Positions 14,318 through 23,001 are shown, counted from the stretch's first letter. The stretch: DNA of 30,932 nucleotides from a virus (IMGVR_UViG_2529293142_000025:1-30932), one strand, 5' to 3'. Numbers and translations are program-made. The notes: generated by a model not told the origin, from the sequence alone.

Positions 14318-14929
14318 TTAAAGCTGCATCAGCCTTTCCACCAGTTTATCTCTGCGAACAACAAACCAACCATTGGCTCTCGCCAGTTCCAGCCATGACT
14401 CAAGGGAAATAACAATATCATCATCCCGCAACTGAATTGTGGAAACAGTGACACCGCCTCGCTGATAACAGAGAACTCGCGTGTCGTAACTTTTCTGGCA
14501 TGAAGCTGGCGCTGACAGATCCTTTTGTCTGAAATAGCAGTCTTCCAGTTTTTCGAACACATCCCACGCCTGATCGGTTTCGAGCATTTTGGCGTGACGG
14601 GCTGCGCCTCGTTCTGTCCAGAGGATAAGGGAGCGGGCTTTCGGGGAAATTTGTAACCCTCTTAAAGATGGTTGCAAATTTTGTGAGTTACTTAAAGTAA
14701 CCCGCAAATTTTGTGAGTAGTTTAAAGCTACCCGCAATTCTTTAAGGTCATTACCAACAACTTTGAAAAAGTGTTTCCCTTCAACGAAGCGTGCTTTGTT
14801 CTCATGATGATTCTGGCGAATACGCACCGGCTCAGTGCCGTAAAGCTGCGCCAAAAGTTCGGTGGTAATAACAGGAATCTGGTTATGGGTGATAGGGGAG
14901 AGAGTTTCAACAGAAATTTGAGTTGTCAT
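14318..14929 (-). CDS. antirepressor-like DNA-binding protein (KilA-N/ORF6N-type, Roi-like)
   Basis: 203 aa; N-terminal ...LLAQLYGTEPVRIRQNHHENKARFVEGKHFFKVVGNDLKEL and ...SLILWTERGAARHAKMLETDQAWDVFEKLE resemble the two halves of the KilA-N/ORF6N fold; first gene after the late promoter. Confidence 0.5.
   Translation of the reverse strand: MTTQISVETLSPITHNQIPVITTELLAQLYGTEPVRIRQNHHENKARFVEGKHFFKVVGNDLKELRVALNYSQNLRVTLSNSQNLQPSLRGLQISPKARSLILWTERGAARHAKMLETDQAWDVFEKLEDCYFRQKDLSAPASCQKSYDTRVLCYQRGGVTVSTIQLRDDDIVISLESWLELARANGWFVVRRDKLVERLMQL
14671..14733. repeat. about 30 bp tandem direct repeat (2.5 copies) inside the roi-like gene
   Basis: GGTTGCAAATTTTGTGAGTTACTTAAAGTAACC / CGCAAATTTTGTGAGTAGTTTAAAGCTACCC / GCAATTCTTTAAGG on plus strand. 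Confidence 0.7.
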
Positions 14930-19804: not shown

Positions 19805-20229
19805 GCCATCACCTCCTGAAAATTACCCTGATAAAACGCCAACACTCGCTGCATAACCTCACTCTTCCGGCACTCGCGACAGATTATGTTCAGGTGTCTG
19901 TCGTAGCGGCGTATTTCTCCGTCTGGTAACTTTCGAATCAGTGTCTGGTCAGTTGTTTTCTCCGGTGTCTTACGCCATTCACGATACGCCTGCTCTGATG
20001 CAAAAACACCGTATTCCCCGGACATATATAAATCACCACAAGCCAGTACATCCACAAGGCAGCGTCGGACCGAATGCCAGCCAGCTCCCGTCGCTCTCTC
20101 CAGTTGCGACATCGTCATGCGTTCATTTTTGCGTACCAACCCGATAATTCGTGCCTTTAGCTCTTCCCGCTGTTCGGATGTAAAAACTTTTGCCACAAGT
20201 CCTCCTGAAAAATCACCTTCACAATTCAT
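19801..20229 (-). CDS. Ren-like protein
   Basis: 142 aa; C-terminal LNIICRECRKSEVMQRVLAFYQG resembles lambda Ren C-terminus; located directly after the P-like gene as in lambda. Confidence 0.4.
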   Translation of the reverse strand: MNCEGDFSGGLVAKVFTSEQREELKARIIGLVRKNERMTMSQLERATGAGWHSVRRCLVDVLACGDLYMSGEYGVFASEQAYREWRKTPEKTTDQTLIRKLPDGEIRRYDRHLNIICRECRKSEVMQRVLAFYQGNFQEVMA

Positions 20230-20891
20230 ACAAAACCAGCTGCCTTCCGGCGTTCATACTCCCGTTTCAGCAACTCAATTGGTGTTGGCCCCGACGGGCG
20301 TTTTGGTGCTGCCAGTTGCCGCCGTACGGGCGGAACGCTGAAGCCGTCACCAACATGCTTTGCCCATTTCGCTAGTTGCCGTTCTGCAAGTCGTTTTAAC
20401 TCCCCTTCGGTCATCTGGCGCTCAATCCCCTTTGAACGCATCTCGAGGCAAATGTGATACAGCACAGGCTGAGACCACGGGTATTTATCGCTTCCGTCGT
20501 ATCGCCAGGACTCATTGCGCCAGCGGCGGTACTCCTTCATCACAACATCAACCGTCAGACCGAATGGATTGGCTCCGCTTTCCGAAATCAGTGCCACAAA
20601 CTCAGCCAGGTCCGGAGGCCATGTTTCACCCGTCCGGCAGCGGTCCATGCACTGGCGGCAGACCTGTCGGATTTGCTGCTCAGTCATCGCGCCAATCTGT
20701 GCAATCCAGAGCTTCGAAGGTGCGGCCCCGTTCTTCTGGGTCCAGCGGTTCGAATAAATCTCCCCCATGAGTTCCCACAGCTTCCAGGCAGTTTCCGTCG
20801 TTGATAAATCCGTTTTCACGTTCCCACTGCTCACGTGCTGCCCGAATTTCCTGAACTGCCCGTGATGCGGTGCCACCTGGCGCGGCTGCAT
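20226..20891 (-). CDS. replication protein P-like (helicase loader)
   Basis: 221 aa; central and C-terminal similarity to lambda P (..YPWSQPVLYH.. vs ..YPWKSNAHYW..); SD AAGGGGGTGA before ATG 20889-20891. Confidence 0.6.
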   Translation of the reverse strand: MQPRQVAPHHGQFRKFGQHVSSGNVKTDLSTTETAWKLWELMGEIYSNRWTQKNGAAPSKLWIAQIGAMTEQQIRQVCRQCMDRCRTGETWPPDLAEFVALISESGANPFGLTVDVVMKEYRRWRNESWRYDGSDKYPWSQPVLYHICLEMRSKGIERQMTEGELKRLAERQLAKWAKHVGDGFSVPPVRRQLAAPKRPSGPTPIELLKREYERRKAAGFV

Positions 20892-21726
20892 GACTCACCC
20901 CCTTGCTGACTGGTTTAACCTGCGCCCTGACGTGATTTACGTGACGGGCGAATTTCTGCTCCCACTGAACCTGCGTGAACACTTTGCCCTCATCGCTCCA
21001 GTAATCCCGGAAGGCGGCAAGTTCAGCAGGTGTAAATTCCGGCTCCGGCAGAGCCACTCCCCACAGTGCAGCCCGTCGTCGGAAATCCGGCGACGGATTC
21101 CAGCCGGCGGTCATCGGAAATTTTCCGATGGGTTCGCTCAGGCCTTCCAGGTAATCAGGTTCCGTTGCCTGCAACGGCAAACCATTCGACTCACTGACCG
21201 GAGCACTCTCGCGCACGCGCGCGTTATGTGTGGGGTTTAATTCTTTATCTGTATCTTTATCTGTCGTGACTCGTCGTGACATGTCGTGACATATGCGTGA
21301 CTCGTCGCGCGCCCCCTCATTCTGTTTTCGTAATTTTTCCCTCTCGCGCTGCGCTCTCTTGCGCTCTGCCGGGGATTTCGCGGTTTGTGAAACGTTGCCA
21401 TTGTCCTCTTTCAGTACCTGGCGTTTTTCCCATCCACTGATCAAATCTCCATCAAGTACCCGCCCCTGCATTGCCTGTAAAATTGAATCAATTACTTCTT
21501 CCGTCACATCAAGCGCACTTGCTAAATCTTCCGCTGTGACATCAATGTGACCACGTAGTGACACGCCGTGACATGTCGTGACATTTCGTGACGCGCTCAC
21601 CAGAAGGTGGATATACACAGCCATCACTGTTGCGATTGGCTGTCCTGACACCCTGGAAATTGTTCGCCACTTAGGATCGTTTGGCATGTCATGCCATAAT
21701 CTGAGCCAGGCGTTAGCCATACTCAC
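20680..21726 (-). CDS. replication initiator O-like protein with DnaT-like C-terminal domain; 3-prime end uncertain
   Basis: N-terminal HTH/replisome-organizer-like region; FPMTAGWNPSPDFRRRAALWGVALPEPEFTPAELAAFRDYWSDEGKVFTQVQWEQKFAR matches the DnaT C-terminal region from memory; contains two iteron arrays; the ORF overlaps the P-like gene by 212 nt. Confidence 0.55.
   Translation of the reverse strand: MSMANAWLRLWHDMPNDPKWRTISRVSGQPIATVMAVYIHLLVSASRNVTTCHGVSLRGHIDVTAEDLASALDVTEEVIDSILQAMQGRVLDGDLISGWEKRQVLKEDNGNVSQTAKSPAERKRAQREREKLRKQNEGARDESRICHDMSRRVTTDKDTDKELNPTHNARVRESAPVSESNGLPLQATEPDYLEGLSEPIGKFPMTAGWNPSPDFRRRAALWGVALPEPEFTPAELAAFRDYWSDEGKVFTQVQWEQKFARHVNHVRAQVKPVSKGVSHAAAPGGTASRAVQEIRAAREQWERENGFINDGNCLEAVGTHGGDLFEPLDPEERGRTFEALDCTDWRDD
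21233..21301. repeat. iteron array 1 with adjacent AT-rich tract (candidate replication origin)
   Basis: AT-rich TTCTTTATCTGTATCTTTATCTG followed by 4 direct repeats GTCGTGAC with 10 bp periodicity. Confidence 0.55.
21545..21592. repeat. iteron array 2
   Basis: 4-5 direct repeats of nTnGTGAC with 10 bp periodicity, same orientation as array 1. Confidence 0.5.
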
Positions 21727-21791
21727 CTCTTCTGATACCGAATCTTTTTACTCACGAATTGCCGGAAGCGATCCGGTATGAATATTGTCAG

Positions 21792-22217
21792 TCAATGCAC
21801 AACCACAATATTTCCCGCCGGACCACCACGATTCATCTGATTGAAACCAGCGATCGCCACTGCGACAAAATCATCAGCGTCTCTCACCAGTCGTTCCCGC
21901 GTCTCCACCAGCTCCCGAAAATAGGCTGAACTGTGGCTGCGCATTCGGGCCACCAGCAGAGGTGGCATTGCTGTTTCGATCGCTGGTAACAATGCCTGAA
22001 TTTTTTTAACCGCATCAGGGGTGTCTTTCTCCACCCAGCGGAAAATTTTCTGAGTATTGCGAGCCAGGGCTTCCGGATGGCTGTCGTCATACAGTTCTGG
22101 GAACGTCATACCCAGTTCAAAATAAGCCCTGGTTATTTCAGCTGCCGGAACTTTTTCACCGTCCGGATGCGCCCAGGCATTCATCGCCATGCGGATGTGT
22201 TCATGCTTGATTTTCAT
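21792..22217 (-). CDS. ydaT: YdaT-like protein (CII-position gene of Rac-type immunity region)
   Basis: 141 aa beginning MKIKHEHI; position immediately after the cro-like gene. Confidence 0.45.
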   Translation of the reverse strand: MKIKHEHIRMAMNAWAHPDGEKVPAAEITRAYFELGMTFPELYDDSHPEALARNTQKIFRWVEKDTPDAVKKIQALLPAIETAMPPLLVARMRSHSSAYFRELVETRERLVRDADDFVAVAIAGFNQMNRGGPAGNIVVVH

Positions 22218-22482
22218 GAATCAAGCTCCTAGAAAGTGGTTGTGTTAACGTTTTGGTATCTTCCAGCTCGGGCCAAATATTCATCCAATCAAAAGGCCTT
22301 AGTTGCTGACGTGTAACTTCACCATTACTGGCTCGCTCAATAAGGACACATAACGATGCCCCTAACACTTGACCTTTACTCAATGCCTTTCTTAGATAAC
22401 CGATGCTGGTACCACACTCGCATGCAAACATACGCTGTTCATCTGACGAAAGAGAATTGAGAAATATTCTTAATTCTTCCAT
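22201..22482 (-). CDS. ydaS: YdaS-like Cro-type HTH regulator
   Basis: 93 aa with HTH-like CGTSIGYLRKALSKGQ; divergent from repressor gene. Confidence 0.5.
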   Translation of the reverse strand: MEELRIFLNSLSSDEQRMFACECGTSIGYLRKALSKGQVLGASLCVLIERASNGEVTRQQLRPFDWMNIWPELEDTKTLTQPLSRSLIHENQA

Positions 22483-22499
22483 AGCTACTCCTTAGTAAA

Positions 22500-22582
22500 C
22501 ACAGCAAAGAATACCTGCAGGTAAACAAAAGTCAATACCCACAGGTTGTTTACCTTGCAGTAATCGCATCTATTATTTACCT
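22500..22582. promoter_or_regulatory. divergent promoter/operator region between ydaS-like and racR-like genes
   Basis: inverted half-sites GGTAAACAA (22520-22528) and TTGTTTACC (22546-22554) within flanking inverted repeats CCTGCAGGTAAACAA / TTGTTTACCTTGCAG. Confidence 0.5.
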
Positions 22583-23001
22583 ATGGACAAATATGAATTT
22601 AGACGACAGCAACTCATCAAAATTCGTGATGAGAAATGCGATGGTAAAGCGGTTAACGTGGCCAGAAAGATCGGGCGCGAGCCTTCTTATGTATCAAGAA
22701 TGTTGTACCCAGAGGGGAAAAAGGGAAAAAACGGATCGCTGATGATATGGTGGAGATTATCGAAGAGTCCTTTGGGTTACCCCGGGGATGGATGGATGGT
22801 ATCGTTTCATCATCAACGAACACAGCCTCCAGTTATGAAACAAGGGTTCTAACGCCACGACAACGTATTTTTTTAGATCTCTTAGACGAACTGCCAGAAA
22901 GTGAAGCGGATAACTTATTAAAAACTCTTGAAGAGAAAAAACAGTATTACAATATGATCTACGAAGAAATCCGTAAAAAGAAAGCACAAAACGCATCATA
23001 G
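22583..23001 (+). pseudogene. racR: RacR-like prophage repressor, split by a frame break in an A-run
   Basis: ORF 22583..22852 carries the N-terminal HTH (VARKIGREPSYVSRML) then decays into non-protein-like sequence; ORF 22747..23001 carries the C-terminal part and is open upstream without a start; frames join with one extra A in the A6 run at 22726-22731. Confidence 0.55.

Follow-up and report, generated by a model that had tools for sequence, protein, structure and literature searches.

A candidate replication origin with two box arrays inside the initiator gene of a lambdoid prophage class

In phage lambda, the origin of replication is part of the gene of its own initiator: the iterons and an AT-rich tract are found in the middle of O (PMC7466680). 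The RepA protein of the staphylococcal plasmid pSK41 has a DnaD-like N-terminal domain that tetramerises and binds Rep boxes in the middle of the gene for RepA itself, and this domain and the origin are swapped together as a module (PMC5703833). The peptide encoded by the pSK41 origin is a dispensable linker (PMC5703833). In phage SPP1, the direct repeats to which gp38 binds adjoin an AT-rich unwinding element within gene 38 (oriL), and there is a second set of sites, oriR (PMC6316719). In gene 18 of phage L, six imperfect direct repeats of 11 bp were proposed as the origin (PMC8022706). We describe here a viral locus whose closest relatives in kind appear to be the DnaD-like replisome organisers and the RepA_N initiators with an origin in their own gene, a likeness at the level of the fold, with profile matches below threshold. 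The window is the whole stretch of DNA that was analysed (30,932 nucleotides), and its features of interest are the following.

20226 to 20687, minus strand: lambda-P-like helicase loader gene (Pfam Phage_lambda_P, E=3.6e-16; PHROG 109, 'P-like helicase loader').
20680 to 21720, minus strand: replication initiator gene, 346 aa from the ATG at 21720, containing both arrays.
20923 to 21132, minus strand: region coding for the DnaT-like ssDNA-binding domain, aa 197-266 (Pfam DnaT PF17948, E=2.9e-18).
21210 to 21236, minus strand: C-rich run and G+C palindrome (coding strand ACCCCACACATAACGCGCGCGTGCGCG), just downstream of the AT-rich tract.
21210 to 21223, plus strand: the G+C palindrome itself, CGCGCACGCGCGCG.
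21237 to 21264, minus strand: AT-rich tract of 28 bp, 21% G+C, with a purine-rich coding strand (CAGATAAAGATACAGATAAAGAATTAAA), encoding DKDTDKEL.
21266 to 21311, minus strand: array B, four intact boxes and a decayed fifth, encoding the linker peptide RDESRICHDMSRRVTT.
21302 to 21535, minus strand: inter-array spacer of ~230 bp, encoding the helix-turn-helix, the wing and a basic linker helix.
21421 to 21720, minus strand: region coding for the N-terminal winged-helix domain, aa 1-100.
21503 to 21507, plus strand: single inverted box, GTGAC on the coding strand, in the codons D-V-T, 33 nt downstream of array A.
21536 to 21592, minus strand: array A, six direct TGTCACG-type boxes with 10-11 bp spacing, encoding aa 43-62 (SRNVTTCHGVSLRGHIDVT).

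The mechanical open reading frame of the initiator starts at a GTG (21726). The ATG at 21720 is preceded by GAGGTGA, and a RefSeq homologue with 96.7% identity starts at this same residue (MANAW). The limits of the loader gene, which overlaps the initiator stop by 8 nt, were transferred from its RefSeq homologue. Upstream of the initiator are YdaT-like and Cro/YdaS-like genes, and a close relative from E. coli shows the usual lambdoid order, from the integrase to Q and the holin.

The initiator, which matches the PHROG 'replication initiation protein' families 1408 and 3729, consists of the N-terminal winged-helix domain, a disordered basic linker, and the DnaT-like C-terminal domain. In phmmer searches, aa 197-266 match the C-terminal domains of DnaT structures in the PDB (6aep, 4ou6, 4ou7; E ~1e-19). 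Equivalence to E. coli DnaT over the full length was rejected: the score with the NCBIfam DnaT model (NF002770) is 93 bits, below the equivalog cut-off of 201, and profile positions 82-157 alone are matched. We also rejected homology to lambda O, since Pfam finds only DnaT (PF17948) in the full protein, and no Phage_rep_O. The winged-helix domain is the presumed origin-binding domain. Its predicted fold is most like those of the DnaD N-terminal domain and of the N-terminal domain of plasmid RepA, with modest fold matches. Searched alone against Pfam at E-values up to 10, it yields only weak matches to Phage_rep_org_N and HTH_Crp_2. The former (PF09681) reaches 15.1 bits (E=0.023), where the curated cut-off is 23.3. 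A match to PHROG 4880 ('replisome organizer') has E=3.4e-5, and many relatives are named 'phage replisome organizer' by NCBI. A Pfam RepA_N domain (PF06970) was searched for in the initiator without a match.

On the plus strand, GTGAC cores form one phased chain of four (21266-21301) and one of six (21536-21592), in the same orientation and with 10-11 bp spacing; on the coding (minus) strand the box reads TGTCACG. We call array A the one that is upstream in the gene and array B the downstream one, which an earlier note on this DNA had numbered array 2 and array 1, respectively. The cores of array A start at 21536, 21547, 21558, 21568, 21578 and 21588 (steps of 11, 11, 10, 10 and 10). Those of array B start at 21266, 21276, 21286 and 21297; three of them are perfect copies of GTCGTGAC and one is GCGTGAC. 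Among 80 near-identical viral contigs, 49 have an intact copy of the fifth box of array B, which is decayed here (~21303-21311). The earlier note had described two arrays of the same orientation with a period of about 10 bp, each with four to five copies, placed about 290 bp apart, and an AT-rich flank next to array B. The layout holds, with a measured distance of 291 bp (first box to first box, coding strand) and the flank in place; the copy number is right for array B but too low for array A, which has six.

Tandem Repeats Finder independently called period-10 arrays at 21263-21307 and 21558-21592. In 1,000 dinucleotide-preserving shuffles of the window, the longest chain of GTGAC/GTCAC at 10/11-bp spacing had one element in 899 shuffles, two in 101, and never three or more, and arrays A and B are the only such chains of at least three copies of any 5-mer in the whole 30.9 kb. 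The shuffles exclude a chance origin of the arrays. Array A codes for the S1 hairpin, which lies between helix 1 of the winged helix and its helix-turn-helix; among relatives, this array occurs in variants of four and six boxes. Here, a 21-bp in-frame insertion (peptide TCHGVSL, with pLDDT <50 in the structure model) adds two boxes relative to most of them. Array B codes for aa 140-152, a part of the disordered linker.

The locus shares with lambda O/P an origin, here putative, that is inside the initiator gene, within the stretch coding for an inter-domain linker, and the succession of direct repeats, AT-rich tract and palindrome in the direction of transcription. Both have an N-terminal domain, which binds the origin in lambda, and a C-terminal domain that works, or here would work, with a P-type loader: a homologue of lambda P follows the initiator. 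In both, the N-terminal domain and the origin region recombine as a unit, and the number of iterons varies between relatives (PMC7466680). The gene, which the earlier note had called O-like, deserves the term for its position and logic but not for its domains: it has no lambda O domain, and encodes instead a DnaD-NTD-like winged helix and a DnaT-like C-terminal domain. Likewise, the lambdoid iteron signature proposed there is borne out by the presence of iterons and an AT-rich tract in the initiator gene, but the words are of ~7 bp at 10-11 bp spacing, whereas lambda has a single array of four to six iterons of ~19 bp, spaced by roughly 20 bp. Finally, there are two arrays here, ~250-290 bp apart, one of which is inside the region coding for the DNA-binding domain. 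Stx-phage variants of the lambda origin have six iterons.

The likeness to the staphylococcal RepA_N initiators, such as that of pSK41, concerns the direct boxes placed centrally in the initiator's own gene, where they encode a linker, and the exchange of the N-terminal domain and origin as a module. In contrast, pSK41 is a Gram-positive plasmid with a single set of four boxes, its initiator has a C-terminal domain that binds DnaG and is not DnaT-like, and the initiator studied here lacks a Pfam RepA_N match. SPP1 gp38 and oriL resemble it by the in-gene repeats with an AT-rich tract and by the second, separate array, the binding being predicted in our case. The second site of SPP1 is ~13 kb away and has its own AT-rich tract, whereas here it is at 0.25-0.29 kb, in the same gene, and has none. 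The replisome organisers (PF09681) share the DnaD-NTD-like winged-helix fold, with a profile match below the cut-off. Gene 18 of phages L and P22 is another lambdoid initiator gene with short direct repeats, but it encodes a protein of a different family and has one array; its origin was likewise deduced from sequence only.

The earlier note had also suggested a comparison with related phages. We scanned one genome per species and obtained 49 loci encoding the N-terminal domain, 45 of which have a usable gene. Two arrays of the same 5-mer with 10/11-bp spacing are present at equivalent positions in 37 of these 45 loci, which come from gamma- and beta-proteobacteria and one Sphingomonas. In the genes of the relatives, array A is at ~nt 129-181 and array B at ~nt 345-500. 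Both arrays are also found in the phages Evi and Tritos, in Aeromonas pAEv1818 (63% nucleotide identity), and in Pseudomonas phita81A. Hence, the duplicated arrangement, which had been considered unusual, is so with respect to lambda, but is the rule within this family of initiators. Seven loci lack detectable arrays, among which three (L034, L035 and L043) have only about two boxes, beside the AT-rich tract, and no array A.

The box word varies among lineages. The GTCAC(G) class is found in Enterobacteria, Pseudomonas, Bordetella, Chromobacterium and others, the GTAACG class in some loci of Pantoea, Enterobacter, Marinobacter and Sphingomonas, and the CGAACGC class in a third clade comprising Janthinobacterium, Massilia, Collimonas and various MAGs. 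In one Erwinia locus, the word is CGTCACG and its copies overlap, with steps of 5 bp. Despite these differences, arrays A and B of any one genome always share the same word, as expected if one protein reads both. The classes coincide with the clades of the protein, which leaves only about three or four independent events of co-variation. Class-specific residues are found outside the hairpin encoded by array A, e.g., a 9-aa segment and a basic helix that reads RKRxQRERE or RAKxWRE, but they are confounded with phylogeny and the determinant of specificity cannot be assigned from them. The inverted box has an equivalent at the same position in 17 of 23 genes of the GTCAC class, with the valine codon GTG in 16/16, and we found no equivalent in genes of the GAACG class.

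Arrays that encode protein might have no function in cis: they could result from a peptide that is repeated or of low complexity, or from slippage during replication where a loop and a linker tolerate it. The segments concerned, a hairpin with low pLDDT and a disordered linker, do tolerate change, and the number of boxes varies among close relatives. Yet the 10-bp period rotates the box through the three frames (TCACG is read as S-R, GTCACG as V-T, and xGTCAC as C/G-H), and because a period of 10/11 bp is not a multiple of three, the encoded peptide is not repetitive. We analysed codon usage in 22 genes picked on the peptide VTxGHxxVT alone, with a median pairwise nucleotide identity of ~68% in the N-terminal coding regions. 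An earlier set had been picked on GTCAC, which is circular, and the peptide-only set gave the same result. In the boxes, both valines are encoded by GTC and both threonines by ACG (22/22 each), the glycine by GGT (22/22), the histidine by CAC (22/22), the preceding serine by TCA (21/22) and the preceding alanine by GCG (20/22). The codons between the boxes vary, and equally conserved V, T, G, H, R and P residues elsewhere in the domain use all synonymous codons. The relative synonymous entropy is 0.14 inside array A and 0.80 outside (Mann-Whitney, p=2.7e-6). These comparisons of coding sequences indicate that selection acts on the DNA of the array itself and not on the protein. The invariant synonymous sites and the co-variation of the word between the arrays exclude a by-product of coding or slippage. 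With the non-triplet period, they led us to reject repeats arising at the level of the protein or by slippage. The shuffles, too, gave no chain of three or more. We assign a very low probability to arrays without a role in cis.

The AT-rich tract, which adjoins array B, carries the 12-bp repeat TCTTTATCTGTA twice and is the presumed DNA-unwinding element. A purine-rich tract of the AGATAA(A/G) type, (GATAAA)n, follows array B directly in all three box classes. It is conserved next to array B only, and array A has no such tract. The three loci mentioned above that keep boxes only near the AT-rich tract suggest that the core is formed by array B and this tract. Further downstream, the DNA string comprising the C-rich run and the palindrome is read in a different frame in a Serratia locus (L012) and in a Sphingomonas locus (L041), and a G+C hairpin occurs ~50 nt past the last box in 73% of the loci versus 39% of the control windows; this element may have a role. 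A scan of positions 20600-22700 for promoters and terminators gave nothing above the shuffle expectation in the array region, and no promoter-like site near array A.

The gene is a mosaic. In BLAST alignments, positions 20680-21262 of the window match the C-terminal half of ydaU from phage Rac-SA53 with 94% identity; the N-terminal domain of that protein is an unrelated DUF1376. The initiators of Evi and Tritos align over their N-terminal half with positions 21242-21726 (~85% identity) and have unrelated C-termini. The two matches overlap exactly at 21242-21262. The alignments identify the AT-rich tract as the recombination joint between a module composed of the N-terminal domain and the arrays and a C-terminal module. 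We searched for phased arrays in the ydaU of Rac-SA53 and found none that was convincing, only the weak pair TGTTCAAACACC / TGTTTGAACACC. Across the family, the N-terminal domain, both arrays and the AT-rich tract are inherited as one module with differing C-terminal domains and loaders: the partners are lambda-P-like proteins, an IstB/DnaC-like loader (pAEv1818), or a Toprim-DnaB primase-helicase (phita81A). This swapping of partners fits separate modules for origin recognition and helicase recruitment. The module composed of the N-terminal domain and arrays is present in 2,184 of 5,426 complete E. coli genomes (~40%), with up to five copies per genome, and in prophages of Pseudomonas, Aeromonas, Bordetella, Chromobacterium and others. 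On plasmids, it was found in 11 PLSDB records only, mostly prophage-like and uninformative on autonomous replication.

The co-inheritance bears on the identity of the protein that reads the boxes. If this were a host factor or another early phage protein (YdaT-like, Cro-like or DUF977), the arrays would be a regulatory or partition-like site and not an origin. Such a reader might be invoked because the predicted recognition helix of the N-terminal domain (aa 74-84, EEVIDSILQAM) is acidic, and because several relatives have YdaS/YdaT-like and DUF977 genes as neighbours of the initiator. However, the arrays travel with the N-terminal domain while neighbours and C-terminal domains change, phita81A and pAEv1818 having different neighbours and the same arrays. 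A host factor would also not explain three box classes within related hosts, and iterons with an AT-rich tract in an initiator gene are the layout of known origins (PMC7466680, PMC5703833). We deem it very improbable that the boxes serve another protein.

The reading we favour, and hold to be probable, is that the region is a prophage origin embedded in its own initiator gene, with array B and the AT-rich tract as the core and array A as an auxiliary but conserved element. The case for an in-gene origin comes from the conserved positions of the arrays, the co-variation of their words, the invariant synonymous sites, the AT-rich tract, and the module that associates the N-terminal domain with the arrays. 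As in iteron-type theta origins, direct repeats of the same orientation exceed chance expectation, adjoin an AT-rich tract and are linked to an initiator gene, and the repeat word co-evolves with the initiator clade, although the independent switches are few. The acidic recognition helix and the seven loci lacking detectable arrays speak against this reading. The proposal of the earlier note that iterons within the initiator gene mark a replication origin is thereby strongly supported by the comparative evidence.

How such an origin would work can be outlined from the sequence, which is the basis on which binding, melting, looping and helicase loading are proposed here. The winged-helix domain would bind the ~7-bp boxes (TGTCACG on the coding strand), and their spacing by one helical turn would allow each array to carry four to six protomers, aligned head-to-tail along a single face of the helix. 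Winged-helix monomers of the OmpR/PhoB type bind head-to-tail on direct repeats with 10-11 bp spacing and a conserved word of ~7 bp. Those proteins are transcription factors whose sites have two repeats; they lack homology to the initiator and are a structural precedent for the one-turn spacing only. Assembly of the initiator on array B, the core origin, would melt the adjacent (GATAAA)n tract. The DnaT-like domain may then hold the single strand and, with the lambda-P-like protein, bring in the host DnaB. Array A, ~250-290 bp upstream, would be a second set of sites for the same initiator, most likely with a positive role: it could raise the local concentration of the initiator, or bridge to array B through oligomers of the N-terminal domain, looping or wrapping the spacer.

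Array A might instead act negatively. The origin would then be array B and the AT-rich tract only, and array A would bind the initiator as a regulatory site: a handcuffing or titration sink, a roadblock for autoregulation of the operon, or a decoy between prophages. That the AT-rich tract is beside array B only, and that some relatives keep boxes solely near it, is compatible with this possibility, but across the family, conservation and constraint are as strong in array A as in array B, which fits an essential role at least equally well. Handcuffing of iterons is an established mode of control and N-terminal domains of the pSK41 type tetramerise (PMC5703833); in Stx phages, however, the distal extra iterons are required for replication and are not inhibitory (PMC7466680). 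The up to five copies of the module per E. coli genome would give scope for decoys, and cloned iterons of the lambda origin inhibit related phages, according to one report (PMC3349717). Also against a negative role is the lack of a promoter-like site near array A in the scanned region. Overall, we judge a negative array A to be rather unlikely.

A further possibility is that the two arrays form an obligatory bipartite origin, in which bridged oligomers would loop or wrap the ~250-bp spacer, either driving the melting or acting as an intramolecular handcuff that sets firing. This we consider unlikely. The distance between arrays is 248-262 bp in most genes of the GTCAC class and 199-261 bp in the GAACGC class, with an overall range of 199-350 bp. 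It shows no clear helical phase and is fixed largely by the length of the protein, so it argues neither for nor against looping and does not discriminate among the roles of array A. The ~250-bp spacer is the DNA that encodes the initiator's own helix-turn-helix and wing. A corollary of an obligatory bipartite origin is that the sequence of the S1 hairpin (aa 43-62) would be dictated by the protein's own putative binding sites. If this hairpin contacts DNA, a single stretch of DNA would be both site and reader, and any shift of specificity (GTCACG to GTAACG to CGAACGC) would alter the two at once.

Short repeats at 10-11 bp spacing in lambdoid initiator genes are already known, e.g., in gene 18 of phage L (PMC8022706). 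Three features are new: a conserved bipartite layout in which the DNA-binding domain is encoded by DNA that contains one of the arrays, a box word that changes in both arrays together and defines three or four classes, and the clear dual coding constraint. We found no published origin, binding, footprint, origin mapping or replicon test for this initiator family in the full-text literature, in which subscription journals are incompletely covered, and the paper on the Eru/Stx replication region does not treat the repeats and the initiator gene. The two-part design is common and, apparently, undescribed, even if a specialist would find a two-part origin within a gene only mildly surprising.

Defining this origin would provide a likely annotation for a very common class of lambdoid prophages. 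Many of these reside in pathogenic E. coli, in which the dose of toxin depends in part on prophage replication. The classes of specificity, whose words differ at only one or two positions, would be a natural series suited to the study of the co-evolution of initiators and their sites. Array A is open to synonymous recoding, by which the role of the DNA in cis can be separated from its role in coding for the protein. Finally, because a cell may carry several prophages of the same class, cross-activation or titration between prophages becomes a testable question.

The number of boxes in the two phased arrays of the initiator gene varies among near-identical E. coli prophages (loci L055-L134; window positions 21536-21592 for array A and 21266-21311 for array B). 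Counted as boxes in A and in B, 49 contigs are of the (6,5) type, 25 of the (6,4) type and 4 of the (4,5) type, and 2 have an interrupted variant. The (6,4) type includes the window, whose fifth B box is mutated. Array A changes in size by a step of 21 bp, equivalent to two boxes, which preserves the reading frame. In the homologue of Erwinia phyllosphaerae (L027), both arrays have boxes that overlap, following one another every 5 bp (CGTCACGTCACGTCACG), an arrangement that would place sites on opposite sides of the double helix. Two other homologues, from a Serratia MAG (L047) and from Pantoea (L053), are both devoid of the two arrays, and their genes include a segment resembling a GIY-YIG nuclease motif (YVYYV...GISRNPWAR). 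Elsewhere in the window, the tandem repeat GCAAATTTTGTGAGTTACTTAAAGAAACCC (14674-14737; 30-bp unit, 2.1 copies, 85% match) is unrelated to the arrays. The features considered here are the following:

21210-21236, C-run and G+C palindrome ACCCCACACATAACGCGCGCGTGCGCG, just past the AT tract
21503-21507, single inverted box copy, 33 nt downstream of array A
21682-21698, 7-bp perfect inverted repeat TGGCATG-T-CATGCCA, overlying the invariant peptide WHDMP
21792-22482, YdaT-like (PF06254) and YdaS/Cro-like genes, immediately upstream of the initiator gene
Gene nt 159-181 and 411-451 of L027, overlapping-box arrays
Gene nt ~320-480 of L047/L053, GIY-YIG-like segment, directly after the winged-helix domain

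The inverted box copy is kept in 17 of the 23 genes whose boxes are of the GTCAC class, and its valine codon is GTG in 16/16; GAACG-class genes lack a counterpart. Codon usage at the inverted repeat near the gene start hints at a further DNA-level constraint: 17 of 18 diverged relatives use GAC for the Asp of WHDMP, whereas other Asp codons are variable. Beyond the AT tract, the presumed unwinding element, ACCCCACACATAACGCGCGCGTGCGCG has near-identical counterparts in Serratia (L012, gene nt ~457-490) and Sphingomonas (L041, gene nt ~499-530). This DNA is kept even though those two genes read it in another frame than the window does (KTPH versus NPTH), which suggests, from sequence comparison, that the C-run and palindrome form an element conserved as DNA. 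In 73% of the loci overall, a small G+C hairpin lies ~50 nt past the last box, compared with 39% of control windows. It recalls phage lambda, in which a palindrome lies to the right of the AT tract.

The genes upstream of the initiator are arranged as in Rac-type prophages, where YdaT-like and YdaS/Cro-like genes occupy the same position, and genes for DUF977 and DUF4406 come after the P-like helicase loader gene. A large share of the initiator-family database proteins are annotated as "partial" (hundreds to >1000 member sequences, on short contigs). The initiator gene is probably a place where short-read assemblies break, because similar prophages are present in several copies per genome.

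The initiator gene itself is a mosaic, and its joint coincides exactly with the AT tract (window 21242-21262). The left-hand part is a 94% match to ydaU of Rac-SA53, whose N-domain is of the DUF1376 type, and the right-hand part is an 85% match to Evi/Tritos-type initiators. Common to the two, the low-complexity (GATAAA/GATACA)n tract may itself be the substrate for recombination.
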